Shown here in pieces: positions 22,624 to 61,143 of a stretch of 64,000 bases of DNA (positions are counted from its first letter, which is position 1; the number at the start of each line of letters is the position of its first letter). Below the pieces are notes generated by a model. The model was given only the letters and a program-made list of their open reading frames with translations, made no database searches and was not told where the DNA came from. Both the position numbers and the translations under genes were made by a program. The DNA comes from Hadesarchaea archaeon. GTDB lineage: Archaea > Hadarchaeota > Hadarchaeia > Hadarchaeales > Hadarchaeaceae. The DNA is taken from NCBI GenBank assembly GCA_029259175.1, contig JAPDJH010000001.1:96001-160000 (forward strand), read 5' to 3'.

Positions 22624-22715
22624 CCCGCGGTAACTCAGCCTGGTAGAGTGGCCGGCTGTAGACCCGGACGGCTGAAACCGGCATGTCGGGGGTTCAAATC
22701 CCCCCCGCGGGACCA
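22624..22715 (+). tRNA. tRNA-Tyr(GTA) with ~15-nt intron (22662-22676) and encoded CCA
   Basis: Acceptor cccgcgg/ccgcggg (C1:G72, A73), anticodon stem gccgg/ccggc, GTA at 22658-60, T loop ggttcaaatcc. Confidence 0.93.
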
Positions 22716-37608: not shown

Positions 37609-37626
37609 AAGAAGCTATATATTAAC

Positions 37627-38004
37627 ATGCGGAATAACTTCGCTCGTCTGACGCCACGGGAACTCGAAAAGCTCTCCACCGACTTCTTTAGGAAAATGTG
37701 TGGGGAGGTCAAGTCAACACCATACGTGAAGGACTATAGAGCGGACGTCATAGCAGGGGAGGATGACATGTGGTGCTCGTCCAAGCACAGCCGAAGGCAC
37801 AATGTTGGAGGCGAAGTCCAACGAACACTTAGGATGACGCGGAAGCACGGGGCGAACAAGGCGGTGTTTATTACCTCCTCGAACTTTTACCCGGGAAGCG
37901 GAAAAGCATACAAAGGGGTGCCAATCGAGCTTAGAATTGCAACAGATTCTCCTAGCTACTGGAAAGAATTTCGAAGTTTTGGTGGCCTGGTTGCTAGCGT
38001 TTAA
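37627..38004 (+). pseudogene. Decayed Mrr-like restriction endonuclease
   Basis: LTPRELEKL...D..ADVIA...GANKAVFITSS, but QxK and other residues are scrambled. Confidence 0.55.
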
Positions 38005-38073
38005 ATAATAGCGGGTGCTCTTTTGAATCCCAACGTTTTTTATTTTCACCTCCAGAAAGTGATATGCGAAATC

Positions 38074-39051: not shown

Positions 39052-39202
39052 ATAGTGTGAATGACTTTTCCCTCTTTTAGCACTTCCGCAGACATAAGAT
39101 AGCGGAGCGTGAATAAACATGCCTCAGGAGGTTACATCTGCGGAACTTGTGCACATCAACAAGGCTTGTGTAAGTAGGTTTGCACTTAATCTACGGTTTC
39201 GT

Positions 39203-39291
39203 GGCGGGTGGCGGATCCCATCGGGGTTTCCTAAGGCCCATTCCGAGGACGATATCAATGGGAGACGACCCGAAGGCTCCCGCCACCCGCC
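39203..39291. other. Long GC-rich stem-loop between convergent genes
   Basis: ggcgggtggcgg/ccgccacccgcc closing stem with inner tcggg/cccga and cccatt/aatggg. Confidence 0.6.
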
Positions 39292-39420
39292 GTAATAGAA
39301 TTTTGGTAGAGATTTTTAGAGGTTATGTTTGCTTGGGAGACACTTGTGGAGGACTACATCCCTTCTTCACAGAACTTTTTTGGAGGACGGACGGGCCCCT
39401 ATTTGTCATTAGAAAGCAAA

Positions 39421-40431
39421 TTAAATTTTTTCTAAGAGACCTAGCCAGTCCTGCTTGCTCTTGACTAGAAATCCGCTACTTGCTAGAAAACTGCCGTCTG
39501 GACGGTCTTTGATCGGCACGATGTGGATCGGATACTTCCCCTCTGGATCCAGCTCCTTTATTTTAGGATGCGCTCGAACCGCCTTCTCGGAGAAGATTCC
39601 GAGCCCAGCATAGATCTCTATTCTCCTTTTTTCTTTTCGCCCGGCCAAACGGCACTGCGCAATTATAGGAACACGAAGATCCAGACGGGCTTTCTCAACA
39701 AATCCGGGTATGTAGACGGGGGGTGGCTCGAATTCAGGAATGAGATCCCAAATTTCTTTTTCAGCTTCTTTGGTCAACACTCCAATTTCCCTGCCCAGCG
39801 GAAACAGTTTTTCGCGAATGATGCTAATGTGCTTAAAGAATGAAATCATGTGAGTAATCGGCACGCCACTCTTTACCAAGACAAAAACGTCAGAGTGCTG
39901 AACTTGAGCGCCGGGAAGCTCAAGCCAAGCTCCTTGAAATTTCGTGTCTTTAATGCTTACTCTCAGCCTGGGTTTTGTCCAATTGGCACCCGGTTTTTTG
40001 ATTTCAGAAATGTCGCGCGGGAGATATTTTTCTAAAGGCCCCCTTGTTTTGTCCACGCGCGCCTCAACTCCAAAATGCTCTTTCAAAAACTTCACGAACC
40101 CTATTTCGCCGAGCTCGCCACGCGTCGAGTCCGCCCACTTCTGTAACAGGTCGCGCTCCCCGCCGGTCCGGAAGTCTATCGAAGCATAGCTGAATGCAAG
40201 GCTGAGCCCCCGGATAACTGCTGTTGCGTACTCCTCCGTGTTCAGCCACACTAACCGATCCTGGAGGCGTGAGAGCCACTCCGCAACGTTTTCCCGTATT
40301 AGCTCGCCAACTCTCGTGGCGCTACGCACCAGCTTTTTTGACAAATCTTCCGCGGTTTCCTTTCTCAACCCGTGCTTTCTCATCACCCGTTTGACTTCCT
40401 CACGCACTTCCGCTTCCCAGTGCTTCATCAT
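39421..40431 (-). CDS. Putative type II PD-(D/E)xK restriction endonuclease
   Basis: RGELGEIGF, PRDI, VSIK; context next to a C5 MTase. Confidence 0.6.
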   Translation of the reverse strand: MMKHWEAEVREEVKRVMRKHGLRKETAEDLSKKLVRSATRVGELIRENVAEWLSRLQDRLVWLNTEEYATAVIRGLSLAFSYASIDFRTGGERDLLQKWADSTRGELGEIGFVKFLKEHFGVEARVDKTRGPLEKYLPRDISEIKKPGANWTKPRLRVSIKDTKFQGAWLELPGAQVQHSDVFVLVKSGVPITHMISFFKHISIIREKLFPLGREIGVLTKEAEKEIWDLIPEFEPPPVYIPGFVEKARLDLRVPIIAQCRLAGRKEKRRIEIYAGLGIFSEKAVRAHPKIKELDPEGKYPIHIVPIKDRPDGSFLASSGFLVKSKQDWLGLLEKI

Positions 40432-40511
40432 TACCCATCCGATGCAATAAATTTAAGTTTTAAGTGCAGGCTCTCCCAACGGCTTCAAACCCTTGTGGAA
40501 CCGCGGTTTTC

Positions 40512-41108
40512 TTAGAGGAGCTTATCAAGCTCCGCGTAGAGCTCTTTTCTAGATAAAACAGTGCTATTCGTCTTCTTGAATTTCGCGCGGATCCGCCGGA
40601 GAAGCGCACGCACGCTCTCCGGCTTAAGCTGGCGCGAGCGTTTAACCAACCAAGACATTATCCGGGGATCGTTCTTAATTGCAGAATCAAAGAACTCCAC
40701 CCAAGTTCTCCATCTCTCCTGCGAGGCAACCTCTGGTGGCATTTTTGCAAGCTCATATGAATACCGGAATATAGGATGCCGGAGAAGAGTTTTTTCTGAA
40801 AATCTATGCACCGAAGCGTGGTACTGCGCTGCTTCCAGAAACAAAAACAGCTCTGTTTGCGGGAGAGCGAAAAGCTTTCTCGCTTTCTTCCACAAGCGCT
40901 CCAACTCCTTCCCAAACCAGTACCAGTACTCGGATCCGTATCTTCTAGCATTGGGGAAGCGATTCCGCATTCTCCGCTCAATAGTTGGCACTTCGGCGCT
41001 CAAATATGCGTCCACTCTGTCGGCGGTTTCTTTTTCTTGATAGGTTATTGCACCCCCGCCTGCTTTCTTGTAAAAGGGCTCGTCGCCACGGCGTACGAGA
41101 ACGGGCAC
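40512..41108 (-). CDS. Hypothetical helical protein in the GHKL-REase operon
   Basis: Starts 2 nt after the GHKL stop; YWYWFGKEL and RWRTWVEFFD motifs. Confidence 0.6.
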   Translation of the reverse strand: MPVLVRRGDEPFYKKAGGGAITYQEKETADRVDAYLSAEVPTIERRMRNRFPNARRYGSEYWYWFGKELERLWKKARKLFALPQTELFLFLEAAQYHASVHRFSEKTLLRHPIFRYSYELAKMPPEVASQERWRTWVEFFDSAIKNDPRIMSWLVKRSRQLKPESVRALLRRIRAKFKKTNSTVLSRKELYAELDKLL

Positions 41109-41110
41109 GT

Positions 41111-43084
41111 TTATGCCCCCTTTTTCTCCAGTATGAGAGAAACCAAATCGGTTGAAGTTTTCAAAACTTCTTCAGCACTCATTTCTTTATCGAACGGTTT
41201 TAGTCCTTCCATAGCCATTATCTCAGCGACGGCGCGCGCTAGGAGCTCCACAGCATATTCATTTGTGCTTTCCTGATTTCGGCACCTCAGGCGGTACTGA
41301 GGGTGACTGGTGCTGATTTTTAACACATACCCTCCTTCTGGGTGGCTCTCTACTCTAAATTGCGGATTGAGCTCCTTTTCCCCAAATTTTCCTGAGAGCT
41401 TAGGTACATACTTGATATCGCGGAATATTCCAGTTGCTGGTGGCGGGTCCTGCTCAACCCACAGTGTAAAGATTGCTGTATCGAGTTTTTCGCCTTTATG
41501 ATGTCTTGGATGTTCCAAGCACTCTAGCTCAGCAATCAGCTTGCACCTCCCTGGTGCAAGCTTTCCTGCGCTTATCTGGACACGAAAATCTCCAATTTGT
41601 TTTTTCTCTCTTGGAGCTATATTTGCCCGCTTTTTGCGTAAAAGATCTTTGACGGTCACACCTGCCTGCTCGAGGCGCGCGCCAACTTCCACCCGCGCCT
41701 TGCAATCAGTTCTGTTTGCAACCTCTAAAGTAAACGATACTTCTTCTCCAAAATCAACGCGCGAGTAGCCTCTGGGAAGATTCAGATTTTTAAAAGCCAC
41801 ACCGATGTCCCGTGGCGAAACATGTGGGCGTCTCTTCCCTGGACGTCCTTCCGAAAGGGTAATACCTAGTTCCTTCAGCAGACGGTTAAAATCACGCAGG
41901 AGCTGGTAAAATCCGGCTGGCCTCTCTTTGACTTCAATACCCAGTTTCTCCTCAGCGAACCTGCGGAGTTCGTTAGCCAAGAATGCTCTTATTTGAGGCA
42001 CAATCCCTCGGCCAAAGGCGCTTGCCGTTCTTATGAATCCGTAGTGCGTTGGATCCTCCACTTTTTTCAGCAATTCTTCCGTGCCCATATCTCCTTCAAA
42101 AAATCCGTAGATACGATCCGCTTTCTCTGGCGGGAGATCTGTCAAATCGCTGACGGGAAATCTAGTAATAACCATTCCGCCTCGCAAGATCGCTATGCCT
42201 CGGACATCTTCTGGAGGGGGGGACTCAAGAAAACACAGATTGAGCATCTTTACGCGCGTAGACCTTTTGCCTCTCTTAAGCAGACAATCTCGCCTTATCC
42301 AAACTTTTACGCTTTTTGAATCCTCTGTCGGAAACCTCAACTCGCTCGGAACCTCAACTGTCTGCTCATCACTACCGTGCTTCAAAATTACGCGGAGAGA
42401 GCCATTTTCCAACAGTCGCCACCAAGTAGTTTGAATATACCTTTTAAACGATCCATTTAGAAAGGCTTCTTTCAGCTCTTCTACAGGGTCAACGATGATT
42501 ATCCTAGTCCCAACAGTCTGAAGAGGTTGCAAAGCAGGGAAATATTGCTTTAACATTGCTCGTGCTCTTGCTCCCTCCACGGGGTTGTCTAAATCGCCCA
42601 ACTTTCGGGCGCCCAGTCTGTACACTCCGTCCTTTCGGTAGGTATCGTACACTATAAGATGCTTTTTTGAGTTCATCACGAAAACAAATTTTCCTTGCCC
42701 CCGTGCCCCGCGCTTTGTCGGATCTGGACGCAGAAATGCGTAACCTTCAAAACGGCCCCATCTTTCTTCTTCTGGTAGATCGCGCCTCATTTCCTCCTCC
42801 GAAAGGATTCGGCCTGTAAGACCCGTTGTGCCACTGTCAGCAATAATGAAAAGCGGAGGGTTTGCTTCATCGATTAGCTCGAACCGCACTACTATCTGCC
42901 GTGCGTTAGGATCTTGGGCATCTACCGAATTCTGAAGCGCGTCCTTCTGGAGTGGATGAATTAAATTGTCTACGTGGTATAGATAGTTACGCTTGATGTT
43001 GTCAAGGACCCCCTCCCAAAAAGTAGGAGTCTGTCGTCGCGCTTCACTTATGCGCTTCTCAATTTTGTCAATGTTTACTATCAT
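41111..43084 (-). CDS. GHKL (MORC/Hsp90-like) ATPase
   Basis: DALQNSVDA, IADSGTTGL, GARGQGK, GTRIII. Confidence 0.75.
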   Translation of the reverse strand: MIVNIDKIEKRISEARRQTPTFWEGVLDNIKRNYLYHVDNLIHPLQKDALQNSVDAQDPNARQIVVRFELIDEANPPLFIIADSGTTGLTGRILSEEEMRRDLPEEERWGRFEGYAFLRPDPTKRGARGQGKFVFVMNSKKHLIVYDTYRKDGVYRLGARKLGDLDNPVEGARARAMLKQYFPALQPLQTVGTRIIIVDPVEELKEAFLNGSFKRYIQTTWWRLLENGSLRVILKHGSDEQTVEVPSELRFPTEDSKSVKVWIRRDCLLKRGKRSTRVKMLNLCFLESPPPEDVRGIAILRGGMVITRFPVSDLTDLPPEKADRIYGFFEGDMGTEELLKKVEDPTHYGFIRTASAFGRGIVPQIRAFLANELRRFAEEKLGIEVKERPAGFYQLLRDFNRLLKELGITLSEGRPGKRRPHVSPRDIGVAFKNLNLPRGYSRVDFGEEVSFTLEVANRTDCKARVEVGARLEQAGVTVKDLLRKKRANIAPREKKQIGDFRVQISAGKLAPGRCKLIAELECLEHPRHHKGEKLDTAIFTLWVEQDPPPATGIFRDIKYVPKLSGKFGEKELNPQFRVESHPEGGYVLKISTSHPQYRLRCRNQESTNEYAVELLARAVAEIMAMEGLKPFDKEMSAEEVLKTSTDLVSLILEKKGA

Positions 43085-43216
43085 CACCAAGACCTTTTTC
43101 TTCCATTTATTTAATAACTCCTCAAACGCCCAGTAATAGCAAAATGAAAAGATGCGAGCGCTGAAAGTAGCATAAAACTCAAATCCCCAAGTCATCTAGA
43201 TAAATCTGGTGAAAGA

Positions 43217-44605
43217 GTGAAGCACAAGGTTGTATCGCTGTTTTCGGGAGCCGGCGGGCTGGATTTGGGTTTTGCTTCTTCAGGAAAATTTGAAATACTG
43301 CTGGCAAACGAAATCTTGGATCCCCCAGCTGAAACTTATTCGCTGAACTTTAAAGTTGAAAAAGTAAGCCAGCGCGTGTCCCTTCCATGCATTTTGAGGT
43401 CTGATGTTGCCGACCTGGACTTCTCAACGCTTCAGGGAAGTGAGATAGACGTCGTTATAGGAGGGCCACCGTGCCAAGACTTTTCAATAGTTCGAGGACC
43501 GGCGACGGAGAGGAAGGGAGTGGAGGTAAAACGAGGCAGGTTGTACGCGCACTTTGTGCGGGCTTTGATAAAATTGCAACCCAAGGTTTTCGTGTTCGAA
43601 AATGTTCCAGGCTTGAAAAGCTCCAACAATGGCTTGGCATATCGAACTATTTTAGAGGATTTTAAGAATCTTGGCATTCGATGGGCGGAGGTAAAGGAAG
43701 TTCTGGAGAAGCAGAACGGCAACGGGAAGAGCGTCGGCTACGAAGTAGTGTTCAGCGAAGTAGTGAATATGTCAAAATTGGGAGTTCCTCAAGCGCGGGA
43801 GAGGCTTATCATCGTCGGCGTGAGGCGTGATATTCTTCATGCAGGAGGTGGCGCTCGTTTGTGGAGGCTGGCTCAGCACCTCCGCACGGTCCTTAGCGGT
43901 TGTGGAAAAGCGGTTTCAGACTGCCCTCTAACCCCCATCGAAGCTTTTGAAGGGAAGCCTCTCCCAGAACTCCAAAGCGTATACGAGGACGTGATGAGGG
44001 AATATGCTGATGTCTTTTCCGAAGTTGCTACATCGACAGCGAAGGAGTGGAAGCGAAAAGTCTGGGACCGCCTCACGTTCGACGCGGTGAGAGACTACAC
44101 ATATATAAACGAAATAAAAGTGCCAGAAAACTGGCTTGAAAATGCCTTTAAGGAGCACGCGGAGCTTCTCGAGGAGCTTGGATACAAAGGCGTCAAAGTG
44201 GCGGAGATAGCGCCTCCAGACGGAAGCAATGCTAGGCCGAAAGAGTCCCGAACCGTCATCGAAAGGCTTAAGAGAATTCCGCCCGGGGCGAACCACGAAT
44301 TTGTAAGGGGAACCAAATGGGAGGTTGAAGGGCGGGGCATGAGCCTCATATACCGGCGCATCTTTCCCCTGAAGCCTGCGTATACGGTAGTAGCGTACGG
44401 TGGCGGTGGAACGTGGGGGTATCACTACGAGCGGGATCGAGGAATGCTTACCAACCGAGAACGGGCCCGGCTTCAAACATTTCCCGACTGGTTTTTGTTC
44501 TGCGGAGGGTGGGCGCAAGTTCGAGCGCAGATAGGCGAAGCTGTTCCGCCTCTTGCAGCAAAAAGGATTGCTAGCGCGCTTGATGAATTCTTGAAGCATG
44601 TCTGA
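43217..44605 (+). CDS. dcm: C5-cytosine DNA methyltransferase
   Basis: LFSGAGG, GGPPCQ, FENV, QARER, RERARLQTFPD, QIGEAVPP. Confidence 0.95.
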   Translation: MKHKVVSLFSGAGGLDLGFASSGKFEILLANEILDPPAETYSLNFKVEKVSQRVSLPCILRSDVADLDFSTLQGSEIDVVIGGPPCQDFSIVRGPATERKGVEVKRGRLYAHFVRALIKLQPKVFVFENVPGLKSSNNGLAYRTILEDFKNLGIRWAEVKEVLEKQNGNGKSVGYEVVFSEVVNMSKLGVPQARERLIIVGVRRDILHAGGGARLWRLAQHLRTVLSGCGKAVSDCPLTPIEAFEGKPLPELQSVYEDVMREYADVFSEVATSTAKEWKRKVWDRLTFDAVRDYTYINEIKVPENWLENAFKEHAELLEELGYKGVKVAEIAPPDGSNARPKESRTVIERLKRIPPGANHEFVRGTKWEVEGRGMSLIYRRIFPLKPAYTVVAYGGGGTWGYHYERDRGMLTNRERARLQTFPDWFLFCGGWAQVRAQIGEAVPPLAAKRIASALDEFLKHV

Positions 44606-44650
44606 ACTCGCTATCGACTTTTTAATTTGCCCGGAAGCAAATAAAAAATC

Positions 44651-45325
44651 GTGCGGGCGCAAGAGAAGAAGACTGAGTTCAGAAAGCAGATGATCAAGTG
44701 GTACAGAAGATACGGAAGGCACGATCTTCCGTGGAGGAAGACTTCCGATCCTTGGAAAATACTGCTAGCTACATTAATGCTCAGAAAAACAACAGCTCGG
44801 CAAACAGAGAAGATTTATAAGAAGTTCATAGAGCGCTATCCCAATCCCCAAAGCGTGTGTTCTGAAAGCGAGAAGAAAATCAGGTCAGTGATACGCCCGC
44901 TGGGGATAGAACACCAGCGCGCGCGCCTGATAAAGCGCTTGGCCTCAGAAATTGTGGAAAAATTTGGGGGAAATGTGCCAGCAGATATGCGCAAGCTGAA
45001 GTTACTTAAAGGGGTTGGCGAATACACCGCTTCAGAAGTTCTGCTTGTAGCTTACGGCGAGCCACGACCGCTTTTAGACCGTAACATGATTCGAGTAATA
45101 GAGAGAGTCTTCGGCATAAAATCAAAAAAAGCGCGACCCCACACGGATGCACAACTTTGGAAATTCTGTAAGAGCTTGCTTCCAAAGGATCCGGAGCTGG
45201 CAAAGGAATTTAACTACGGGGTGCTGGACTTTGCTAGCTCAATCTGCCAAATCACGCCGAAGTGCGAACGTTGCCCGCTACGCTTAATCTGCTATTATTT
45301 TGCCAGACGGAAAGTTGGCGCTTAA
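44651..45325 (+). CDS. HhH-GPD 4Fe-4S glycosylase, Mig-type T:G mismatch glycosylase
   Basis: LPWR..DPW, LRKT, LKGVGEYTA, LDRN, C..TPKCERCPL..C; adjacent to the C5 MTase. Confidence 0.85.
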   Translation: MRAQEKKTEFRKQMIKWYRRYGRHDLPWRKTSDPWKILLATLMLRKTTARQTEKIYKKFIERYPNPQSVCSESEKKIRSVIRPLGIEHQRARLIKRLASEIVEKFGGNVPADMRKLKLLKGVGEYTASEVLLVAYGEPRPLLDRNMIRVIERVFGIKSKKARPHTDAQLWKFCKSLLPKDPELAKEFNYGVLDFASSICQITPKCERCPLRLICYYFARRKVGA

Positions 45326-45453
45326 TCTTCATCAGAGCGCGACCGTTCTCGTCCCGAACGAAATCCTTTTTCTGTGCTCTCTTACCACGCAAGAAGATTC
45401 GAGCGGTTTATGCCCTTTTCCGCTTTCGGGATTTGGACACTCTTCGCTGGATG

Positions 45454-45467
45454 CCCCCCGCGGGACC
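45454..45467 (+). repeat. att-like copy 1 of the tRNA-Tyr 3' end
   Basis: ccccccgcgggacc identical to 22701-22714 (16/17 when extended left). Confidence 0.75.
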
Positions 45468-45604
45468 TGCTCTTCCTACCAATCTGGGAAATTATAGGGC
45501 TTCTTTTTCGCAAAAAGGCTGCGTAAATCCTGCTTTGGTTTTACACATCCTGGCTATTTCACGATTAGATTTATATTTCACGAAAAATGAGGTAGACCGA
45601 CGCT

Positions 45605-47206
45605 ATGGGCAGGAACCCCGTCACGCGAAACGAAATAGCGAAGGTTCTTTCCGACCTCAAGCCGAGGAGCGTGAGAGAAATAGCCGAGGAAGCAGGTCTC
45701 ACTCCAAAAGTCGTTGGGGCTGCCCTGGACCGGATGTGGAGGGCAGGGCTGGTGCTCCGGACGAGGCAGCCCATCCGAGAGCGAACGAAGATCTTCAGGG
45801 GACGAGCTGGGACGAGTGAGAACCTGCGGTCCTACTACCTCTATGTGCTGAAGCCCGAAGGGAAGGAGAGGTTGAGAATTGGGGAACACGAGTTCGTCCC
45901 ATTCTCCACAGAGTACTTGGATGTGCGGGGAGGGGGGAGGATCAGCAAAGCGAAGCTGATTCTGGAGTTCCTGCGGAAGCACCGGGACAGGGCGTGGTTC
46001 TCCGTCGAGATAGCGGAGGCGCTGAAGGACAAGGGCGTGAAGGTGCGGGACATCATGCCCACCGTAAGGCGCTACCAGCGGAGGGGGCTGGTTTTCGTGA
46101 AGGGATTTACAACGGCTGGCGGGCGGGAGACCCCGACCGAGTATGGGTATGTCATCACTTGGCTTGATCGTGACAAGCCGATTGAGCGGGCGATTGAGGA
46201 GGCGCTGAAGCGGTATGAAGCCGCCCTGAACCGCAAGCGGCTCGAGTCACCTACGGTCGAGCGCTACAACCGCGTCCGCGAGCTTATCATAACCCAATCC
46301 AAGCTCGGGCACCTTACCGATGTGGAGTACATCACGAACCAGCTCCGCTGTTCGAGGTATCAGGCTCAGGATGCCCTTAAGAGGGTTCAGCAGCTCTTCG
46401 GCGACATAAAGGAGGTCAAGCTCTTCGACCTCTACAAGTTCTACTACCACGAGTCGATGCCGGAGGCGAAGCTCAGGGCAGCGATAAAGATGAAGGAGCA
46501 GTACATACGGGCACATGGCGGGCGGAAGCACCGTTATGGGCACAACTGGGAAGCGGTGGTGGAGTGGTTCGTCGAGACTTTCACTCCCGGGGCACGCTTC
46601 TGGGAGCAAAAGCACAGGGGGGAAGGGATGGATCCGCGGAGGATAACCCTCTACTTGATAAAGAATGTGGGGAAGCGGAGGCGACGGGCGGAGGTTGACC
46701 GCGTGTGGGAGGTGCGGGAGGATCCCTTCAGCCCACCGACCGTCAATGTGCTCTCCTGTAAAGCGGGGGTGGTGCGCAAGCAGGACATAGAGGACTTCTT
46801 TGAGGTTCTGCGCTGGAGCAAGGAGTTCGGGGCGGACACCCCGGACGGGAGGGTGATAAAGCAGGGAGTCGTCGGGAAGTTCGCCGCCGAGACCTTCGAC
46901 CCGCGTGAGAAAGTCAAGCTGAAGGACGGGACGGAGATAACCCTCTCCCAGTACGCGAGCAGGCTTGGCATCACCCTCATCAAGGCTTCCGACTTCAACG
47001 AAATGATGCGGAAGTGGGGATGTTCCCCGAAGGTGAATGTCCAGAAGATTTGTAAGTGGGCCAAGAACGAGAAAGAGGTCAGGGAGATCTTGACATCGAT
47101 TTACCAGAATCCATCGCGAGCCGAAGAAATCTTGGAAAAAGTTAGAGAACGAAACCTTCCGCTTTACCAGTTTGAGAAAAAACTTGAGGAGAGTGGAAAA
47201 TGTTAG
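45605..47206 (+). CDS. Multi-wHTH protein with C-terminal Mrr-like PD-(D/E)xK domain
   Basis: SVREIAEEAGL, FSVEIAEAL; G.NWE, EVD, VLSCK. Confidence 0.6.
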   Translation: MGRNPVTRNEIAKVLSDLKPRSVREIAEEAGLTPKVVGAALDRMWRAGLVLRTRQPIRERTKIFRGRAGTSENLRSYYLYVLKPEGKERLRIGEHEFVPFSTEYLDVRGGGRISKAKLILEFLRKHRDRAWFSVEIAEALKDKGVKVRDIMPTVRRYQRRGLVFVKGFTTAGGRETPTEYGYVITWLDRDKPIERAIEEALKRYEAALNRKRLESPTVERYNRVRELIITQSKLGHLTDVEYITNQLRCSRYQAQDALKRVQQLFGDIKEVKLFDLYKFYYHESMPEAKLRAAIKMKEQYIRAHGGRKHRYGHNWEAVVEWFVETFTPGARFWEQKHRGEGMDPRRITLYLIKNVGKRRRRAEVDRVWEVREDPFSPPTVNVLSCKAGVVRKQDIEDFFEVLRWSKEFGADTPDGRVIKQGVVGKFAAETFDPREKVKLKDGTEITLSQYASRLGITLIKASDFNEMMRKWGCSPKVNVQKICKWAKNEKEVREILTSIYQNPSRAEEILEKVRERNLPLYQFEKKLEESGKC

Positions 47207-47268
47207 AAAATCTATGTAATGAAGCCATAGAATTGAGAGTTTATACTAATGGAAAGACTAAGTAGAAT

Positions 47269-47691
47269 TTGGTGAGCGCTGTGAAACATTGGTTGTGTAT
47301 CACCAACGAAGCCAATTGGGCGGTTGTGAAAACCAAGAAAGTATGGGGTGTTAATTCGAAACACGAAAAAGTAATGAATATGGTAGAGAAAGACGATAAA
47401 TTAGTTTTTTATGTGAAGCCTTTACGCATTGGAGGTATTTTCACCGCAATTTCCAAACCATATAAGGATGAGACTCCTATTTTTTCTGGAGGAGAATTTC
47501 CTTACAGAGTTAAGATTAAACCACTCGTGCTCCCGAAAAAATTCCTCGACTTTTACTCATTGTTTGGAAGACTCAAATTCATCACTCAAAAGAAGAAAAA
47601 AGGTTGGGGCGGGCACTTACAAGGAAAAGCTATGCGAATTATTCCAAAAGAAGATTTTGACTTGATCAAAAGAGAATTAGAGCGGATTTAA
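47269..47691 (+). CDS. EVE domain protein
   Basis: HWLCITNEANW....VWGV...DKLVFYV...FPYRVKIKP...LQGKAMR.I. Confidence 0.88.
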   Translation: MVSAVKHWLCITNEANWAVVKTKKVWGVNSKHEKVMNMVEKDDKLVFYVKPLRIGGIFTAISKPYKDETPIFSGGEFPYRVKIKPLVLPKKFLDFYSLFGRLKFITQKKKKGWGGHLQGKAMRIIPKEDFDLIKRELERI

Positions 47692-47703
47692 AGGTGATTT
47701 TTA

Positions 47704-49155
47704 ATGGAAGTGAATACTTCTGTAGCTGATTACACAACTTTCAAAAGTCAAAAAGAAAAGCATTTTGTAAGAAAAGAAAAAGTTTTTGGTCAGTTTATGA
47801 CTCCCGCCGAGGTGGCGGGTTTTATTGTAAGTTTCGCGATCCAATCACTCGAATATAAACCCAAGCTTGCCATTGATCCGGCGTGTGGCGATGGAATTTT
47901 TTTGAGAGAGCTTGTGAGAGCTGGAGTTCCCCATATTGTGGGTATTGATATAGATCCCGAAGTATCGGAATCGATCCCTCCGGATATTAAATCTCAGCCT
48001 AATGTAGAACTTATTATCCCCCAAGACGGGTTGGAGGACTCGAGATATGAAGGAAAAGCAGACATTGTCGTAGGCAATCCTCCTTTCAGTGCCAAATATG
48101 GGCGGATAAAAGACACCCGACTCTCGAATTTTGAATTAGGGAAACAAAAGACAAGTCAGGCAATAGAAATTTTATTTTTGGAGAAGTTTATACGATTAGC
48201 CAAAAACGGAGGGGTGATAGGAATCATTCTGCCTTTCGGTATTTTTGCCAATTTACCACTTCGGGATGTTCGAGAATTTATATTAAAAAACACCGAAGTT
48301 CTTGCCGTGGTTTCTTTACCACGTTTCATCTTTAGAAGCGTCTCCAACACAAGTTCGAAGACCTGTATTTTATTTGCCAGAAAGAGAAACTCTCCAAACA
48401 CTAAAGAAGTCTATATGTCTATTGTGAATCGAATAGAGGAATTGCCACTCCTTCTGGACAGAAAAGAACACGAATCACCAATGGCAAAATTTGTAAAATT
48501 AGAAGACCACATCCTTTATCCAGAATACTATCTTCTGTTTTCCGAACTCCCCAAAACATCATATCCGACAATGAAGTTAGGAGACTTGGTCGATATCTCC
48601 TGTGGCAGAACAGAATATGGGGAAAAGAGAAAATTCGTAGAAAAAGGCATTCCCTTTATTTCAGCAAAAACTGTTACGCAGCTCGGCATAGATTTCTCAC
48701 GAGATAGGAAGTTTGTCGAGCCTGGCAGTGAAATGGATAAGAAGAGCGCTCGTGTTAAGGTTGGCGATGTCGTCTTTGTTAGGGTTGGTGTTGGGTGTAT
48801 CGGAAGAGCAGCCGTAATTACAGATGAAAATGATCTTGGGGTTGTGGATGATTGGTCATACATCTTAAGAACGAAAAGAAACACTATTTCTCCATATTTC
48901 TTAGTTTTTTACCTCCAATCAAATTTCGTGCGCTCACTAATAAAAAAGTTAAGTAGAGGAGTTGGGACGGTGACCCTCCCACAAGCTCTTTTGAAACAAA
49001 TACGAATTCCTATTCCTGAAAAAGAGATTGAGAGAAAGCTTAAAAAAATTTATTTAGAGATGGTTAACGCGAGAAGAAAAGGAAAAACAATTCTGGCGAA
49101 AAAGAAATTTGAAGAAGGATTGTCCCTGTTAAAAAAAGAAGTTTTTCAAGAGTGA
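47704..49155 (+). CDS. N6-adenine MTase (gamma class) fused to an HsdS-like TRD
   Basis: GQFMTP, DPACGDG, GNPPF; KLGDLVDISCG..IPFI..GDVVF.R.G..IG..PYFL..YL.S. Confidence 0.88.
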   Translation: MEVNTSVADYTTFKSQKEKHFVRKEKVFGQFMTPAEVAGFIVSFAIQSLEYKPKLAIDPACGDGIFLRELVRAGVPHIVGIDIDPEVSESIPPDIKSQPNVELIIPQDGLEDSRYEGKADIVVGNPPFSAKYGRIKDTRLSNFELGKQKTSQAIEILFLEKFIRLAKNGGVIGIILPFGIFANLPLRDVREFILKNTEVLAVVSLPRFIFRSVSNTSSKTCILFARKRNSPNTKEVYMSIVNRIEELPLLLDRKEHESPMAKFVKLEDHILYPEYYLLFSELPKTSYPTMKLGDLVDISCGRTEYGEKRKFVEKGIPFISAKTVTQLGIDFSRDRKFVEPGSEMDKKSARVKVGDVVFVRVGVGCIGRAAVITDENDLGVVDDWSYILRTKRNTISPYFLVFYLQSNFVRSLIKKLSRGVGTVTLPQALLKQIRIPIPEKEIERKLKKIYLEMVNARRKGKTILAKKKFEEGLSLLKKEVFQE

Positions 49156-49270
49156 TTACTTTTCCAATAGCGGTTTGTTTTAAACTCAGGGGAGGACTTG
49201 AGGGTCAGGACCCAAGCAGTTAAAAACTTTCCACCATTATTAAGCAGGGGCCTGTGAAGGTGGTAAGAAC

Positions 49271-49936
49271 ATGGGTATTAAATGTAGAGTTCTTTCCGAT
49301 GACCAAAGAAATATTGTGGTAGAATTACCTATTACTTTGCCCACAGCCTTAGTTAGAATTAAAGATAAGGATGGAAATCCAGTTGGGAGTGTTAGACAAC
49401 AAAATCTAAGGAAAGGGTGGTATATCGAATGGCAAATTTCATATTTTGATGAAAATAAGGAACTTGTGGAATTAGGGGAAATGTTCAGACTACTGGTAGA
49501 ATTCGGAAAACTCAACGAAGCAGAAATAAAAGAACTTTACCAAAACATTCAAAAAAGGAACACATTTTTTGAAGAAATTTTTTCTGTTTGTTTAGAAGAG
49601 AGTAAAAAACCACCAGAATTCGAAGGGTTTGTGTTATGGTATAGGAAAAACCCAATTTTGAGAAAATATCTTTCTGATGGTTCCATCATCCACATAGAGT
49701 TAAGACATAAACAAAAAGCTGTGGGATACCAAGCTATGTTGTATCTATTTATTCCCATAGAAAATGTGAGATCGAAGGAAGGCGAATTGATAATAAACCG
49801 TCCCGCACGTCAAAAAGAGGTCGTTGTGTGGTTTCCAAAAAAAGAACACATTATAGAACTTGTAAAAGCGTTTTCTTGTATGTCGAGAAAGCATTTCGAG
49901 GATATTATGTCTATAGTTAGGAGTTTTCTTTGTTAA
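49271..49936 (+). CDS. R.PabI-family (HALFPIPE) restriction DNA glycosylase
   Basis: LPIT.PT, YIEWQISY, HKQKAVGYQAMLY..IP, S..H..DI. Confidence 0.88.
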   Translation: MGIKCRVLSDDQRNIVVELPITLPTALVRIKDKDGNPVGSVRQQNLRKGWYIEWQISYFDENKELVELGEMFRLLVEFGKLNEAEIKELYQNIQKRNTFFEEIFSVCLEESKKPPEFEGFVLWYRKNPILRKYLSDGSIIHIELRHKQKAVGYQAMLYLFIPIENVRSKEGELIINRPARQKEVVVWFPKKEHIIELVKAFSCMSRKHFEDIMSIVRSFLC

Positions 49937-49961
49937 TTACCAAAAATGCCCAGAGGAGAAC

Positions 49962-50579
49962 ATGATCGTGCAAGTTCAAGGTGATAAATTAGTTGTGGAA
50001 TTTCCTCTTAGTCAACCAAAAAGTTCTTGGAGAGTCAGGTCAAAAAAAAGAAGAGGGCGAAGGGGCTGGAAAAAAGACCCGAATTTATGGATTTTTAGAC
50101 CCACTTTTGGAGACTTGATCTATGAAGGAGACATTTTCGAATGGATGATAAGTAATGAGGAACTGCGCGAGATACTTTATGTTGCAAAATGCATGGAAGC
50201 TGATTATTATGAAGAAATCAAGAAAGCCATACATAATTTGAACAAGTTTGAAAGTCACGTAGATATAACACTTGGTTGGGGCGTAAAAATCGAAGGTGAA
50301 CTGAGACCCAAACAAAAAAAAGGAGAAGAACTGACTCCCTGGTTTTTTATTTTGTTTCCATTGGATAGAAGTTCAAATGTCTACTATTTGAAAGATGCGA
50401 AAAACAACAAGATTGAAAATCCCATCAACCGAAAAATCAGAGCAGGAGATAGACTGGTTTGGGTTGTAGATCTCAATTGGCTCAAAACCATTATTCTTAA
50501 ATTGGCTGGATTGAGCGAGGATCATAAGGAAAAAATTATTAAGGAGGTCTTTGAACCAATTGATAATCTCAAGTTATAA
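49962..50579 (+). CDS. Divergent PabI-family paralog lacking the catalytic Tyr and Asp
   Basis: VEFPLSQP, FEWMISN, LRPKQK, INR, LSEDHKEKI collinear with 49271. Confidence 0.65.
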   Translation: MIVQVQGDKLVVEFPLSQPKSSWRVRSKKRRGRRGWKKDPNLWIFRPTFGDLIYEGDIFEWMISNEELREILYVAKCMEADYYEEIKKAIHNLNKFESHVDITLGWGVKIEGELRPKQKKGEELTPWFFILFPLDRSSNVYYLKDAKNNKIENPINRKIRAGDRLVWVVDLNWLKTIILKLAGLSEDHKEKIIKEVFEPIDNLKL

Positions 50580-51257
50580 ATTTACTCTAAACAATCTTTT
50601 TTGAGCGAGCTGGTAGTATCTCTTATTTATTTCAAAACCGATAAACCGTCTTTTCAGTTGCTTACAAGCCACAGCAGTACTCCCGCTTCCGATGAAAGGA
50701 TCCAAAACCAAATCGCCTTCCTTAGAAAACATCCGTAAAATTTCTTTGATGAAGTGCTTGGGTTTAGGCGTTGGATGGTCTATAAACCCTTCGTCGGGTT
50801 CAACCAGCTTCCCCGGAGTATCAATGAAAAGATCTCTATTTCGGGAAATTATTTTTGGATTTCCTTTTTTGAAAACGAAACAAGACATATACTTGGTAAT
50901 ACCAATTGGAGATCTAACTGCTCCCTCAGGACAGTATAAAATAATTTGCCAAAAATATGTGAATGGATTGTGTTTGAACAAAGCAGGCAAAAATTTCGTG
51001 CTAAAAAATGTGATGAAAAAAGAGTTGTCTCTTAGCACCCTATAGCACTCGGGCAGAATTTTATAGAAAGTTGTCAAATTTTCGTCACTATAAACTCCTT
51101 CCTTACCAAGTCCGTAAGGTGGATCTGTAAGGATTAAATCTATTTTTCTGTTAGGTATTTTTTTGATCAGCTGGAGAGCATCGCCACAAATTATTTTATT
51201 AATGAAATCATCTGGAAACTTCAATTTCGAAATGTCATCGTTTCTTTGTGTGTCCAT
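50574..51257 (-). CDS. Beta-class N4C/N6A DNA methyltransferase
   Basis: DPPY...HPTPKP...DPFIGSG. Confidence 0.9.
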   Translation of the reverse strand: MDTQRNDDISKLKFPDDFINKIICGDALQLIKKIPNRKIDLILTDPPYGLGKEGVYSDENLTTFYKILPECYRVLRDNSFFITFFSTKFLPALFKHNPFTYFWQIILYCPEGAVRSPIGITKYMSCFVFKKGNPKIISRNRDLFIDTPGKLVEPDEGFIDHPTPKPKHFIKEILRMFSKEGDLVLDPFIGSGSTAVACKQLKRRFIGFEINKRYYQLAQKRLFRVNL

Positions 51258-57360: not shown

Positions 57361-58179
57361 ATGGTGAGAGCACGAGAAACAAACAGCTGGGTCATAGGCT
57401 TGGGAGAAAAGTTCAAGTTCATCGACTTCAAACAAATCCCGCTCGCGGACATCCAGCCGAACCCCCATCCGCTCCGCGAGCACAGCTCTGGGTGGTTGCG
57501 CAGATTCACGAAACACTTGAAGCGCTTCGGTGTGGTGGTGGAACCACTAATCGTCACGCGCAACGGCGGAAGGAAATACACCATCGTCGCTGGGATGGGG
57601 CGCTACCTAGCAGCCAAGAGAGCAGGACTGAAGTCGCTTCCGGCAATTGTCGTGGAAATTGACGAAAAAACGGGCTACGTCCTTTCCCTAATCGAGAACC
57701 TGATAAGAAACGGCTTGAACCCAATCGACGAAGCGAGAGCTTATAAACAGTTGATGGAGTGGGGGTGGACTCAGGAGCAAATAGGTTATCTCATCGGAAA
57801 AGATCAGTCGTATGTTTCTCACAGAATTGGTTTGTTAAAGCTCCACCCAGAAGTCCAGCAAATGGTTAAGGAAGGCTACGAAGTCAGCAAAGCGGAAATC
57901 CTCTGCACAGTAAAAAACAAGGAACTACAACTCGAACTCGCCAGAAAGTCCGTGAACTGGAACTGTAACAGGCTCAGCGAAGAAGTCCGCAAACTTCAGA
58001 ATGGGGGAGTGAAGCAAACCCCAAAACCAAAACCCTACGAATGCGAGTTTAAGAAAGCGGTTGACGCCCTCGTGGAAGCCGCCGTCCAGCGGAACCTGGA
58101 AGGGGACTGCGAGAGGTGCCCCATCCGAGAGAAGTGCCCCGAGGTGGTGAATTTCGTGAGGAGGTTGTTCCAATGGTAG
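57361..58179 (+). CDS. ParB/Spo0J-family protein
   Basis: IQPNP, EPLIV, IVAGMGRYLA, LIENL.R.GLNPIDEA, TQEQI..IGK. Confidence 0.88.
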   Translation: MVRARETNSWVIGLGEKFKFIDFKQIPLADIQPNPHPLREHSSGWLRRFTKHLKRFGVVVEPLIVTRNGGRKYTIVAGMGRYLAAKRAGLKSLPAIVVEIDEKTGYVLSLIENLIRNGLNPIDEARAYKQLMEWGWTQEQIGYLIGKDQSYVSHRIGLLKLHPEVQQMVKEGYEVSKAEILCTVKNKELQLELARKSVNWNCNRLSEEVRKLQNGGVKQTPKPKPYECEFKKAVDALVEAAVQRNLEGDCERCPIREKCPEVVNFVRRLFQW

Positions 58180-59630
58180 GAGGAAAGAAATTCAAGAAGG
58201 TGGAAGGCTACGACGAGCCGCTGGAAATTTGGGAACTACCGAAGATGAGCCCGAAAAAACAACGGGAGCACTATGTCCCCGAGAGTTTTGAACACCGAGC
58301 GAGAATGGATGTGCTACTATGCCGAAAAATCATCGAGGAATACACGGAGCCTGGGGAACTCATCTTAGATCCGATGGCTGGAATAGGTACAACCTTGGTT
58401 GAGGGAGCCTTGCTAAATCATGATGTCATCGGTGTGGAGCTTGAGAAAAAATATGTGGAGATCACAAAAAAGAACATAGAGAAGTTAGAACGATATAGGA
58501 CTCTCGCCCCGAAAGGCAAAGCCATCATAATCCACGGGGACAGTCGCCATCTCTCGCAAATACTCGCCGAGAAAGTGGACTCGGCGGTGTTTTCGCCTCC
58601 GTATTTCATCCCCGTTGGAAAAGTCACTGAAGGTACCCTGCTCTGGAGAATAATGAATGGGAAGGGGCGTTACAAAGACACCATAGGGGGGACGAAGAGC
58701 TATGTGCCTTTCACCCAACATCCAGACAACATCCACAAGTTACGGAGATATGGAAATGTAGATAGCATAGTTAGTAGCCCGCCCTACGGCACTGAGGGGT
58801 TCGCTTCCAAGGATAAGAACCGCACCACCTACTTCCGACAGCTCGGTGCGAAGGTGGGCAAGTACACACGGAAAGATGCTTACAAAAGTCCACACAACAT
58901 TGCCAACTTGAAGTATGTAGAAATAGAAGCAATCGTTTGCTCTCCTCCCTACGGGGACTCGGTGAAAAACAGTGATGATCCAGAGAGGTTAGCCCGAGCG
59001 ATGGAGAGACGCGGCTGGGGCAACCATCACACGCCTGGGCGATTGCGCGGGCTGAAGGTGATATGTAGCGGCTACTCCGATAACAAAGACAACATCGGGA
59101 ACCTCCCCTATGGTAAAATCGGGGCTATCCTTAGCTCGCCACCATACTCTGAAGGCATCGGACACCAAGCGAAGAAGAAAGGTGGAAAGTACTGGCGCTA
59201 CCGCGAGCTAAATCTGCTATACACGGGTTGCTTGAGCAAGGACAATATTGCGAGGCTCAAGCATGGAGATGTCAACTCCGTGATAAAGGAGGAGAAGGAG
59301 CGAAAAAAGCAACAGGAAACATATCTTGAAGCAATGTACAAAATCTACTGCGAGTGCTTTAAAGTTCTCAAACCTGGAGGGAAAATGGTTTTGGTTGTTC
59401 GCCCCTTCTATAAAAACAAAAAGTTAATCCGCCTTGACTTGGACACTCGGAAACTATGCGAACTTGCTGGCTTTCGCTTCCTGGAGGCGAAACTCGTTCC
59501 GGCAAACAAATCGGTTTGGCGCCACATTTACGAGAAGAAGAACCCCAAAGCGAAGAAATCTCTCGTCAACTACGAGTTTGTCCTCGTGTTTGAGAAGCCA
59601 GCGGAAAGGGAGGTGGGCGGAAATGGCTGA
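58173..59630 (+). CDS. Amino-DNA methyltransferase with four tandem SPPY cassettes
   Basis: DPMAGIGTT (motif I), 4x SPPY...NI..L..G, TYL.AM..IY..C..VLKPGG. Confidence 0.85.
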   Translation: MVGGKKFKKVEGYDEPLEIWELPKMSPKKQREHYVPESFEHRARMDVLLCRKIIEEYTEPGELILDPMAGIGTTLVEGALLNHDVIGVELEKKYVEITKKNIEKLERYRTLAPKGKAIIIHGDSRHLSQILAEKVDSAVFSPPYFIPVGKVTEGTLLWRIMNGKGRYKDTIGGTKSYVPFTQHPDNIHKLRRYGNVDSIVSSPPYGTEGFASKDKNRTTYFRQLGAKVGKYTRKDAYKSPHNIANLKYVEIEAIVCSPPYGDSVKNSDDPERLARAMERRGWGNHHTPGRLRGLKVICSGYSDNKDNIGNLPYGKIGAILSSPPYSEGIGHQAKKKGGKYWRYRELNLLYTGCLSKDNIARLKHGDVNSVIKEEKERKKQQETYLEAMYKIYCECFKVLKPGGKMVLVVRPFYKNKKLIRLDLDTRKLCELAGFRFLEAKLVPANKSVWRHIYEKKNPKAKKSLVNYEFVLVFEKPAEREVGGNG

Positions 59631-60042
59631 GAATACCAACGAAGTAAGGATCAACACCGAAATCCGTGGCGAACCCGCTCGGTGGCTTGAGGAGTGGATA
59701 GCAAAGGGCTATGTCTCCTCGTATCGGGACGCCGTGGTGTGTGCCCTGAGAGCCCTACACGAGGAGATAGTCGAGGAGGACATAAAGGACGGGCAGCGGA
59801 GAACCGCCCTAAGGTGCCTCGGCGAGGAAGTCCCGAACAACGGCAATGGCAGGAAGCGGCTGAACTTCACGCTCAACGGGAAGGCTGCCGAATACCTGCG
59901 GGAACTACAAAAGAGGGGGTTGGTTCTCAAAACCCCCGACGCCATCGTTCAGGCGTTCAGAGCATTACATAAGAAAGTGGTTGAGCAGGAACTGAAGGAG
60001 ATTCAGCATAAGCGGGTGTTGAAAGAGCTGGGATACGAATGA
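59623..60042 (+). CDS. Tandem-duplicated RHH-like protein
   Basis: RINTEIRGE..RWL....KG...DAV..ALRALH repeated as RLNFTLNGK..EYL..L.KRG...DAI..AFRALH. Confidence 0.65.
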   Translation: MAENTNEVRINTEIRGEPARWLEEWIAKGYVSSYRDAVVCALRALHEEIVEEDIKDGQRRTALRCLGEEVPNNGNGRKRLNFTLNGKAAEYLRELQKRGLVLKTPDAIVQAFRALHKKVVEQELKEIQHKRVLKELGYE

Positions 60043-60212: not shown

Positions 60213-60797
60213 TCATCGCTCCTTTGGGCAAAACTCCCGGCGGGGTGGCTGGACTTCCACGACGATCTTCTCCCCCTTCCGCAAGTGCTCGAGCAGCTCG
60301 CGCTCCTCCGGGTCTGTGACCTTCCGCTCGAGGTACTCCCAGTCGATTTGGTCAGCGTACATCGCCAGAAGCTCTTGGAGATCTGTGATGTCCTTGCCCC
60401 TGCGGAAGCTCAGCTTGGATCTGATGATGTCCTCCAGCGAGGCTATCGCGAGTTCCTTCCCCAAGAACCTGACTTTTCTTGCCCGCCGAAAGACCTCCTC
60501 ATCTTCCTCGAGAATCAAATCCACTCCGTAGCACTCGGGGGTCTTCAGCAGGGCCATTCCGAGCTTGTGGAAGTCCTCGCCGCGAAAGGCGAAGCCCCTG
60601 CGGGTGAACTCTTGGACTACGCGCTCCCACTGAGAGCCAGAGACTGCTAAGAGGATGTCGACATCACGAGTGACCCGGATGTAGTCGTAAAGGGCGCAGG
60701 CGACAGCACCCGTCAGGACGTACTCGATGTGGAGTTCACTGAGGATATCAACTGCCTTCAGTGTCACGCGCCCCAGAGGGCCGAGCTTATCCTGCAC
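60213..60797 (-). CDS. Nucleotidyltransferase (AbiEii/DUF6036-like)
   Basis: YVLTGAVA...R.TRDVD, VDL, EDII.SKL..R.KD..D. Confidence 0.8.
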   Translation of the reverse strand: MQDKLGPLGRVTLKAVDILSELHIEYVLTGAVACALYDYIRVTRDVDILLAVSGSQWERVVQEFTRRGFAFRGEDFHKLGMALLKTPECYGVDLILEEDEEVFRRARKVRFLGKELAIASLEDIIRSKLSFRRGKDITDLQELLAMYADQIDWEYLERKVTDPEERELLEHLRKGEKIVVEVQPPRREFCPKER

Positions 60798-61143
60798 GTC
60801 TGCCCGCCTCTCTTATCGCGATGAGAAAACTGAAATTCGCATCCAGCTCACGGAATCTTTGGGCTATTTTGTTCGGGCTGAGCTCTGCAGAGGACCGCAA
60901 CAGTTTCCTCCCCCTGGCCGTGAGCCTCCAGCCGCCCCAGATGGGGTTCTCCACGTAGCCCTCCTGCTTGAGCCCGCTGAGCATCTTGGCCACGGCCCCT
61001 CTGCTCTTCCCCATCCGCTTGACGAGATCGCGGACTTGGGCGACCGGAAGCTCCCCACGCCTGCAGAGCTCCTCGACGATCCTGAGCAAGCGCACCGATT
61101 CCGGTCCCGGCTTCATCTTCACCCGAATCAAGTTAGGTAACAC
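60787..61143 (-). CDS. wHTH protein, partner of the nucleotidyltransferase
   Basis: GKSRGAVAKMLSGLKQEGYV...GGWRLT..G. Confidence 0.7.
   Translation of the reverse strand: MLPNLIRVKMKPGPESVRLLRIVEELCRRGELPVAQVRDLVKRMGKSRGAVAKMLSGLKQEGYVENPIWGGWRLTARGRKLLRSSAELSPNKIAQRFRELDANFSFLIAIREAGRRAG

Follow-up and report, generated by a model that had tools for sequence, protein, structure and literature searches.

In a stretch of 64,000 nucleotides (nt) from the genome of a Hadesarchaea archaeon (assembly GCA_029259175.1, 1.3 Mb in 23 contigs; contig JAPDJH010000001.1, positions 96,001 to 160,000 of the forward strand), hereafter called the window, a gene was identified that encodes a putative DNA methyltransferase, P0002, in which the segment carrying the catalytic motif is present in four tandem copies. 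The gene lies within a plus-strand open reading frame (ORF) at 58116..59630, and its start is likely to be the ATG at 58173, placed 8 nt downstream of the sequence GAGGAGG (58158-58164). The features of the locus are the following, with protein positions in amino acids (aa):

57361..58179, + strand, gene for a ParB-like protein of 272 aa with ParB_N and HTH_ParB domains (PF02195, 6.2e-16; PF17762, 7.3e-19)
58173..59630, + strand, methyltransferase gene P0002, 485 aa (PF01555, 98.2 bits; PF01170, 56.2 bits)
58173..58571, + strand, N-terminal half of the fold, aa 1-133, with motif X (H-R-A-R-M, aa 41-45), strand 1 and motif I, and strands 2-3 (GD at aa 122-123)
58368..58394, + strand, motif I, DPMAGIGTT, with D66 and G70 unchanged across an alignment of 150 relatives
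58572..58754, + strand, cassette 1, aa 134-194: VDSAVF, SPPY at aa 141-144 (58593-58604), a loop of 40 aa, DNIHKL
58755..58919, + strand, cassette 2, aa 195-249: VDSIVS, SPPY at aa 202-205 (58776-58787), a loop, HNIANL
58920..59114, + strand, cassette 3, aa 250-314: IEAIVC, SPPY at aa 257-260 (58941-58952), a loop with HTPGRLR, DNIGNL
59115..59288, + strand, cassette 4, aa 315-372: IGAILS, SPPY at aa 322-325 (59136-59147), a loop starting from SEGIGH, DNIARL
59262-59288, + strand, truncated fifth strand within the end of cassette 4, aa 364-372, without SPPY
59319..59609, + strand, C-terminal half of the fold, aa 383-479, with the helix ETYLEAMYKIY..KVLKPGG and then strands 5-7
59623..60042, + strand, downstream gene of 139 aa, whose ATG overlaps the TGA of the methyltransferase gene (59628-59630; junction ATGGCTGA)

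The original prediction, made from the letters of the window and their ORFs, had read this gene as a single motif I followed by four SPPY cassettes, and this was borne out. Motif I occurs once (aa 66-74) and is followed by SPPY at aa 141, 202, 257 and 322, and by the pattern (D/H)NIxxL at aa 185, 241, 306 and 357. The array at 58572-59270 (aa 134-366) is thus made of four units of 61, 55, 65 and 58 aa, each laid out as a hydrophobic strand with an Asp, the SPPY, a variable loop and then (D/H)NIxxL. Each cassette is the full segment found between strand 3 and helix D of single-unit relatives and comprises the central strand, beta-4, with its Asp, followed by the SPP(Y/F), a loop of 30-50 aa and a NIGNL-type motif. 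What is repeated is, as had been proposed, the catalytic strand with motif IV and its loop, and not a target recognition domain (TRD) alone. The C-terminal motifs that had been placed after the array were found at aa 383-479, where Y384 and W449 are invariant. The truncated strand that follows unit 4 has counterparts in two relatives, P0003 and P0016.

The repetition is not a product of composition: 0.0041 copies of SPPY are expected per composition-shuffled P0002, and three or more copies appeared in none of 200,000 shuffles. Pairwise local alignment of the units gave z values of 3.2-6.9 (500 shuffles each), the observed score being matched by 2, 3 and 5 shuffles for the pairs that include unit 1 and by none for the pairs 2-3, 2-4 and 3-4. 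The units resemble one another only at their ends, while the loops are mutually unrelated and basic (net charges +3, +6, +2 and +4), in agreement with the conserved ends and unrelated basic middles noticed at first. No repeat was found between the units at the DNA level, where the best local alignments scored 8-14, and the units are therefore old and diverged.

P0002 matches the family PF01555 (N6_N4_Mtase) with 98.2 bits (cut-off 26.7, E 8.6e-28) and contains both the motif I and the catalytic (D/N/S)PP(Y/F/W) by which members of this family are recognized. Its closest sequence matches in the PDB are DNA methyltransferases, namely TTHA0409 (2zie), DpnA, CcrM and an N4C enzyme. The order of its parts is, however, not that of the beta class (motif IV, TRD, motif I), since motif I at aa 66 stands ahead of every SPPY. 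Positions 134-221 of the PF01555 model align to aa 10-100, and in a phmmer comparison with TTHA0409 aa 39-102 correspond to residues 214-277 and aa 380-411 to residues 68-99. Given this order of motifs and alignments, P0002 is by its sequence a circularly permuted PF01555 amino-methyltransferase, in which the half that binds S-adenosylmethionine (SAM), with motifs X, I, II and III, comes first, and not a member of the beta class by order. The C5-cytosine methylase family PF00145 is absent from the 10 Pfam families listed for P0002 at E<=1, no NCBIfam model scored above its cut-off (the Trm14 models gave 26-34 bits against cut-offs of 280-480), and PADLOC assigned to the locus only generic MTase_II models (PDLC03229) and a match to mad2 (9.4e-14).

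All four motifs IV of P0002 begin with Ser, and 558 of 575 motifs in the family are SPPY or SPPF. A Ser in this position is typical of most bacterial N4-cytosine enzymes and so indicative, according to PMC8885841, and for this reason the product is probably N4-methylcytosine. Apart from the loops after SPPY, no variable region that could serve as a separate TRD was found in the P0002 alignment. In CcrM the loop that begins at the DPPY (Loop-2B, residues 31-61) reads three bases, as described in PMC6787082, and therefore each cassette of P0002 plausibly joins a catalytic strand to a recognition loop.

The cassettes are conserved irrespective of their place in the array. The 575 xPP[YFWH] motifs from 120 relatives include 458 SPPY and 100 SPPF. 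The Ser at the first position is kept in 98-99% of first, middle and last units alike, and the strand Asp at position -5 in 86-94%. When 400 strands following a NIGNL motif were inspected, 391 continued to SPP[YFWH] and 2 to xPPY; the other 7 comprise 5 single substitutions, 1 mis-hit of the pattern (P0076, where SPPY stands a few residues further on) and the truncated strand of P0002 itself. S141 and P142 of cassette 1 are kept in at least 90% of relatives. Comparison of P0002 with P0003, its closest relative, gives identities of 57-68% for the cores, 56-82% for the strand and NI segments and 49-51% for loops 2 and 3; in the family some types of loop exceed the cores in conservation, but most fall below them. 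That the spare units might be unconserved decay had been named at the outset as part of the outcome that would overturn the prediction, and the equal conservation of the unit strands rules it out.

The number of relatives is large. A word-indexed search scored 7997 candidates, of which 624 proteins had E<=1e-3. When 1.84 billion representatives were scanned in full with HMMER, 5503 proteins had E<=1e-3, 1771 had E<=1e-10 and 383 had E<=1e-30; at the last of these limits the family has 383 clusters at 50% identity. Counting the units in homologues, as had been suggested, gave between 1 and 11 SPP[YFWH] in the 323 relatives collected. The numbers of proteins with one to eleven copies were, in that order, 9, 41, 97, 69, 46, 31, 17, 4, 6, 2 and 1, and up to 10-11 motifs were found again in a set of longer relatives. 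The repeated-unit architecture is present in 314 of the 323. The pattern of motif I was found once in 278 of them, never twice, and zero times in 45, which are misses of the pattern. The SPP[YFWH] motifs are spaced by a median of 57 residues, and 363 of 455 internal linkers have a NIGNL-like ending.

In its architecture the P0002 family is a so far undescribed form of an enzyme type that is itself known, and it is widespread in viral metagenomes. In IMG/VR 139 of 246 candidate stretches code for relatives, as do 480 stretches in a set of one genome per prokaryotic species. When ORFs were recovered by pattern from the best-ranked loci of each set, 30 of 51 viral ORFs (77 loci kept) were multi-unit, against 2 of 72 genomic ORFs (80 loci kept), the other 70 being single-unit and mostly from Actinomycetes and Chloroflexota. 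The nearest ESM Atlas clusters agree with this, those of 363-546 aa being 76-93% viral and those of about 300-330 aa mostly bacterial. Multi-unit forms are thus mainly viral, which fits an anti-restriction role. Cultured collections gave only partial, N-terminal matches, with none of 9 phage and none of 6 plasmid records reaching 80% coverage; this may be why our literature searches found no description of a repeated motif IV.

Some relatives carry a LAGLIDADG homing-endonuclease domain within the cassette array (P0226, aa 393-550; P0230, aa 303-467; also P0330-P0332). In P0226 this domain starts directly after a unit strand that ends in ...MSP, at the point where SPPY is expected, and it is possible that the insert is an intein, or else an intron ORF in frame, aimed at the conserved coding site of motif IV.

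When the loops were clustered after trimming their conserved tail, they fell into discrete recurrent types that are found across proteins in first, middle and last positions. Written as strings of types, P0002 is [.][Y][A][.], P0003 is [.][Y][A][C] and P0004 is [Y][H][A][N][F], and close relatives of P0002 differ by whole cassettes. The loop of cassette 2 shares 49% identity with the one in unit 2 of P0003 and has a further match in unit 1 of P0004; the loop of cassette 3 is of the commonest type, with 53 related loops elsewhere (10 first, 37 middle and 6 last); and the loop of cassette 4 has 58% identity with the last unit of P0004. Five single-unit proteins were found among 219, three of which have a loop of a type that serves as first or middle unit elsewhere, and the sole loop of P0026 has 83% identity with the third of the four units in P0023, its type being an internal unit of P0005 as well. 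Since loop types are shared in this way between sole-unit and multi-unit proteins, such cassettes are sufficient alone.

Moreover, 8 of 278 proteins (among them P0022, P0045, P0072, P0020 and P0033, the last judged by eye) have 1-5 cassettes N-terminal to the SAM half and more cassettes after it. Of the upstream cassettes, 8 of 14 resemble downstream cassettes of other proteins, and the cassette is therefore independent of its connection to the core. Diversity of cassettes within a protein is favoured, as far as can be judged from the sequences: pairs of the same type occur 27 times within proteins, against 46.1 +/- 6.7 after shuffling, with 1 of 1000 shuffles as low, in tests that ignore the kinship of the proteins and are weakened by this as an argument. 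Units are also frequently gained and lost in evolution, as read from a FastTree tree of 286 concatenated cores with at least 159 changes of unit number (five shuffles gave 162-175). The idea that the units recombine as cassettes thus held between proteins, where the types are reshuffled, but no sign of it appeared within the population: no direct DNA repeats were found in the gene, and the contigs from three runs of a single study, which may be where this DNA comes from, were identical, without joints or indels.

The hypothesis of the original prediction is that alternative cassettes, each both catalytic and recognizing, share one SAM core and give it each its own specificity; of the explanations considered this is the one that we hold most probable, although only tentatively. 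One cassette per folded molecule would lie between strands 1 and 5, beside the sole SAM pocket, and which one is inserted would probably be decided at folding. The pattern of conservation is most simply read as each cassette occupying this position in a part of the molecules. A single polypeptide would then yield a mixture of enzyme forms, each with its own recognition loop and target sequence, and the mobile element would gain broad self-protection against many restriction systems. In its boldest form, which we consider possible rather than probable, the proposal is that of a natural alternate-frame-folding enzyme, in which up to 11 copies of strand and loop compete for one Rossmann core, giving isoforms with different DNA specificities, and which viruses assemble combinatorially against restriction.

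Several observations weigh against this reading. As beta-4 is the central strand of the sheet, an exchange of cassettes requires unfolding, and we know of no natural precedent for the exchange of a central strand. The loops of cassettes 1 and 4 have no BLAST relatives among the typed loops, and the basic charge of the P0002 loops is not marked in the family as a whole, where the net charge is +0.6. The proposal to let structure prediction show which unit completes the sheet succeeded for the frame and not for the units. In the AlphaFold model of P0002 the N-terminal half has a predicted local distance difference test (pLDDT) score of 84-98 and the C-terminal half of 82-98, but run 1 (46 sequences) used the strand of unit 4 (aa 316-321) as beta-4 at a pLDDT of only 57-60, with units 1-3 disordered except for the helices at 270-299, and run 2 (150 sequences) placed no unit there while both core halves were above 90. 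Neither run supports an alternative insertion of units, and misaligned repeats may be behind both outcomes. The confident core that lacks a beta-4 strand in run 2 can also be set on the side of the cassette reading. The helices of cassette 3 (aa 270-299) have a pLDDT of about 90 in both models. A solenoid or extended-sheet arrangement of the array was also considered and is unlikely, as no strands were modelled in units 1-3 and in some proteins the units are split across the SAM half.

The same model of run 1 suits another explanation, in which one fixed cassette is catalytic, most likely the last, which adjoins helix D, with the others serving as accessory arms for binding DNA, holding flipped bases or increasing affinity or processivity, so that the enzyme has a single specificity. 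No unusual folding would be required, and last units do have a signature of their own: the residue after SPPY is Glu in 73% of them, against A (35%) or S (26%) as the commonest residue in first and middle units, and there are two types of loop that stand mainly in the last unit (25 of 37 and 8 of 9). This signature counts against interchangeable cassettes and keeps the idea of a catalytic terminal cassette alive. Nevertheless, a fixed cassette leaves unexplained why the Ser, the Pro-Pro-Tyr/Phe, the strand Asp and the NIGNL are retained equally at all positions, why the same loop types serve as sole, first, middle, last or upstream unit, and why duplicate types are avoided; moreover, run 1 placed its unit at low confidence and in run 2 no unit was used at all. 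We regard a fixed catalytic cassette as rather unlikely, though it survives better than the explanations that follow.

It is also conceivable that the cassettes act in trans, the spare strands entering neighbouring cores to form strand-swapped dimers or chains on DNA in which a partner's cassette would complete each active site. Beta-class PF01555 enzymes are, according to PMC7544214, active as dimers, the spare hydrophobic strands would otherwise be exposed, and units work on both sides of the SAM half. However, every molecule has cassettes of its own, which makes use in trans unnecessary, and single-unit relatives exist, and for these reasons we find this improbable.

The substrate could also be something other than DNA, P0002 being an RNA methyltransferase of the N2-methylguanosine (m2G) type or a protein amino-methyltransferase with cassettes for several such targets. 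The best structural matches of the AlphaFold model, Trm14, aTrm11 and TrmN (3tm5, 5e71 and 3tma; Z 18-19, root mean square deviation 1.9-2.9 over 175-182 aligned residues), are indeed m2G RNA methyltransferases, which speaks against a DNA substrate; P0002 is likewise above the threshold of PF01170 (56.2 bits against 22.3) and has its motifs in the same linear order as the RNA enzymes. Because of these matches a DNA substrate has to be argued from the similarity to PF01555 and from the viral and ParB context. The PF01555 score is the higher of the two, and among PDB entries the sequence agrees best with DNA methyltransferases; neither a THUMP nor another RNA-binding domain turned up in P0002 at a Pfam E<=1; the surroundings are viral or linked to ParB; and the same order of the fold is expected from permutation alone. 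A non-DNA substrate seems to us as improbable as the action in trans.

That the extra units are decaying duplications, or an artefact of assembly or annotation, without function is very hard to sustain, since the tetrapeptide is kept in 98% of unit strands, the architecture recurs in 314 of 323 relatives, identical contigs were obtained in the three runs mentioned above and loops 2 and 3 are nearly as similar to those of P0003 as the cores are, the one sign of decay being a truncated relative elsewhere. This relative was found when 40 related genomes were searched with P0002 (E<=1e-10), which returned the gene in 2 of them: in one (genome G014, locus L160, 1477-1932, + strand) it is a copy of 151 aa that ends in ...SPPFGDAEHHS after the first SPPF, and is likely a remnant.

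The classification of methyltransferases assumes that a catalytic domain has a single motif I and a single motif IV, a rule that is systematically broken by the P0002 family. If each cassette has its own specificity, as in the reading that we favour, the family would be to the amino-methyltransferases what the multispecific phage enzymes are to the C5 class. It would achieve this by competition for the central strand of a fold, which has, to our knowledge, been described only in engineered proteins. Cassettes with specificities of their own would also explain the string of unrelated methylase families (PF07669, PF10237, PF02384 and others) that automatic tools give to the members of the family, and would provide a ready collection of small recognition loops, each with its target motif, for the reading of viral methylomes and the design of methyltransferases.

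A known system similar in logic is that of the Bacillus phages SPR, phi3T and rho11s, whose multispecific C5 methyltransferases have one core and tandem, shuffled, non-redundant specificity modules that protect against several restriction enzymes. These enzymes repeat only their TRDs and have one catalytic motif, whereas the modules of P0002 each carry the catalytic strand and its tetrapeptide; the C5 chemistry (PC motif, PF00145) is absent from P0002, and the likeness is one of logic only. In the engineered alternate-frame-folding proteins a duplicated segment competes for one position of the fold and gives mutually exclusive structures. Those designs are laboratory-made and have two frames, while the P0002 family is natural and has up to eleven segments, their competition being putative.

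With the beta-class PF01555 enzymes (M.PvuII, CcrM, TTHA0409/2zie, DpnA and N4CMT) P0002 shares motif X, motif I, the (S/D)PP(Y/F), the (Q/N)-(I/L)-G before helix D and the helix that ends in LKPGG. It differs from them in its permuted order, in having no separate TRD and in the strand, motif IV and loop that are present four times (1-11 times in the family). Trm14, TrmN and archaeal Trm11 (PF01170) resemble P0002 in that motif I precedes the (D/N)PPY, but they have a THUMP domain and a single motif IV, neither of which describes P0002, and the similarity of the latter to PF01555 is stronger. M.EcoGII and M.EcoGIX are described in PMC7736820 as low-specificity methyltransferases of mobile elements. 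From that account they share with P0002 the likely role of a broad protection of incoming mobile DNA, although they achieve their breadth by a degenerate or absent recognition sequence and with one catalytic motif.

The stop codon of the ParB-like gene (TAG, 58177-58179) overlaps the ATG at 58173, the junction reading ATGGTAG. The two ORFs are in separate frames with an overlap of 7 nt and hence do not form a single ParB-methyltransferase polypeptide. Together with the overlap at the downstream gene, these shared stops and starts make of the ParB-like, methyltransferase and 139-aa genes one tightly coupled three-gene operon. The ParB-like protein matches ParB-like families of PHROG as well as the N-terminal part of the ParB-methyltransferase family phrog_498. 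In such fusions (phrog_498; MTase_II PDLC03229) a ParB N-terminal domain is linked to an enzyme of the N6_N4 type, as in the operon described here, which differs in having two overlapping genes and a ParB with its own helix-turn-helix (HTH) domain. The coupling to ParB pointed out initially is thus real at this locus but is not a trait of the family: ParB was encoded by none of 36 ORFs upstream of multi-unit viral loci, where the large terminase, PolB, the replication protein O (RepO) and a C5 methylase were found instead, and no ParB domain appears among the precomputed domains of 11 longer relatives.

The C-terminal 40 aa or so of the ParB-like protein, after the HTH domain, form a Cys-rich tail with the pattern C..C......C that could bind a metal. 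The 139-aa downstream protein has no family match in Pfam, PADLOC or PHROG. Inspected by eye, it falls into two halves that resemble each other, both closing in a helix (...ALRALHEE... and ...AFRALHKK...), and it may be a tandem small DNA-binding protein.

Further upstream in the window, a tRNA-like gene of 92 nt (22624-22715, + strand), to which ARAGORN gives an unassigned four-letter anticodon, gtag, abuts a gene for a tyrosine integrase (22694-23956, - strand; PF00589, 4e-20). Just past the integrase, after about 24 kb, the guanine-plus-cytosine content drops from about 0.60 to 0.47, and the left border of an integrated element probably lies here. No attachment-site repeat of the presumed element was found. 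From 36910 to 51257 the window holds a dense cluster of genes of restriction-modification type:

36910-37608, Lar-like protein
38023-39051, PLD/NgoFVII-like nuclease
43217-44605, C5 methylase
44651-45325, HhH-GPD glycosylase-like gene, after the C5 methylase
47269-47691, EVE domain protein
47704-49155, N6_Mtase fused to a specificity domain
49271-49936, R.Pab1-like endonuclease
50574-51257, - strand, canonical PF01555 methylase

In view of the integrase, the drop in base composition and the many restriction-modification genes, the methyltransferase operon probably lies within the integrated element. At 21953-22479 a segment of 35 nt is present five times at a spacing of about 120 nt; these are coding repeats within the gene of a beta-helix repeat protein (20725-22557). 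Finally, beyond the operon, at 60213-61143 on the minus strand, a gene for a DUF6036 nucleotidyltransferase overlaps an upstream winged-helix gene (60787-61143), and the pair has the look of a small module of two genes, possibly of toxin-antitoxin type.

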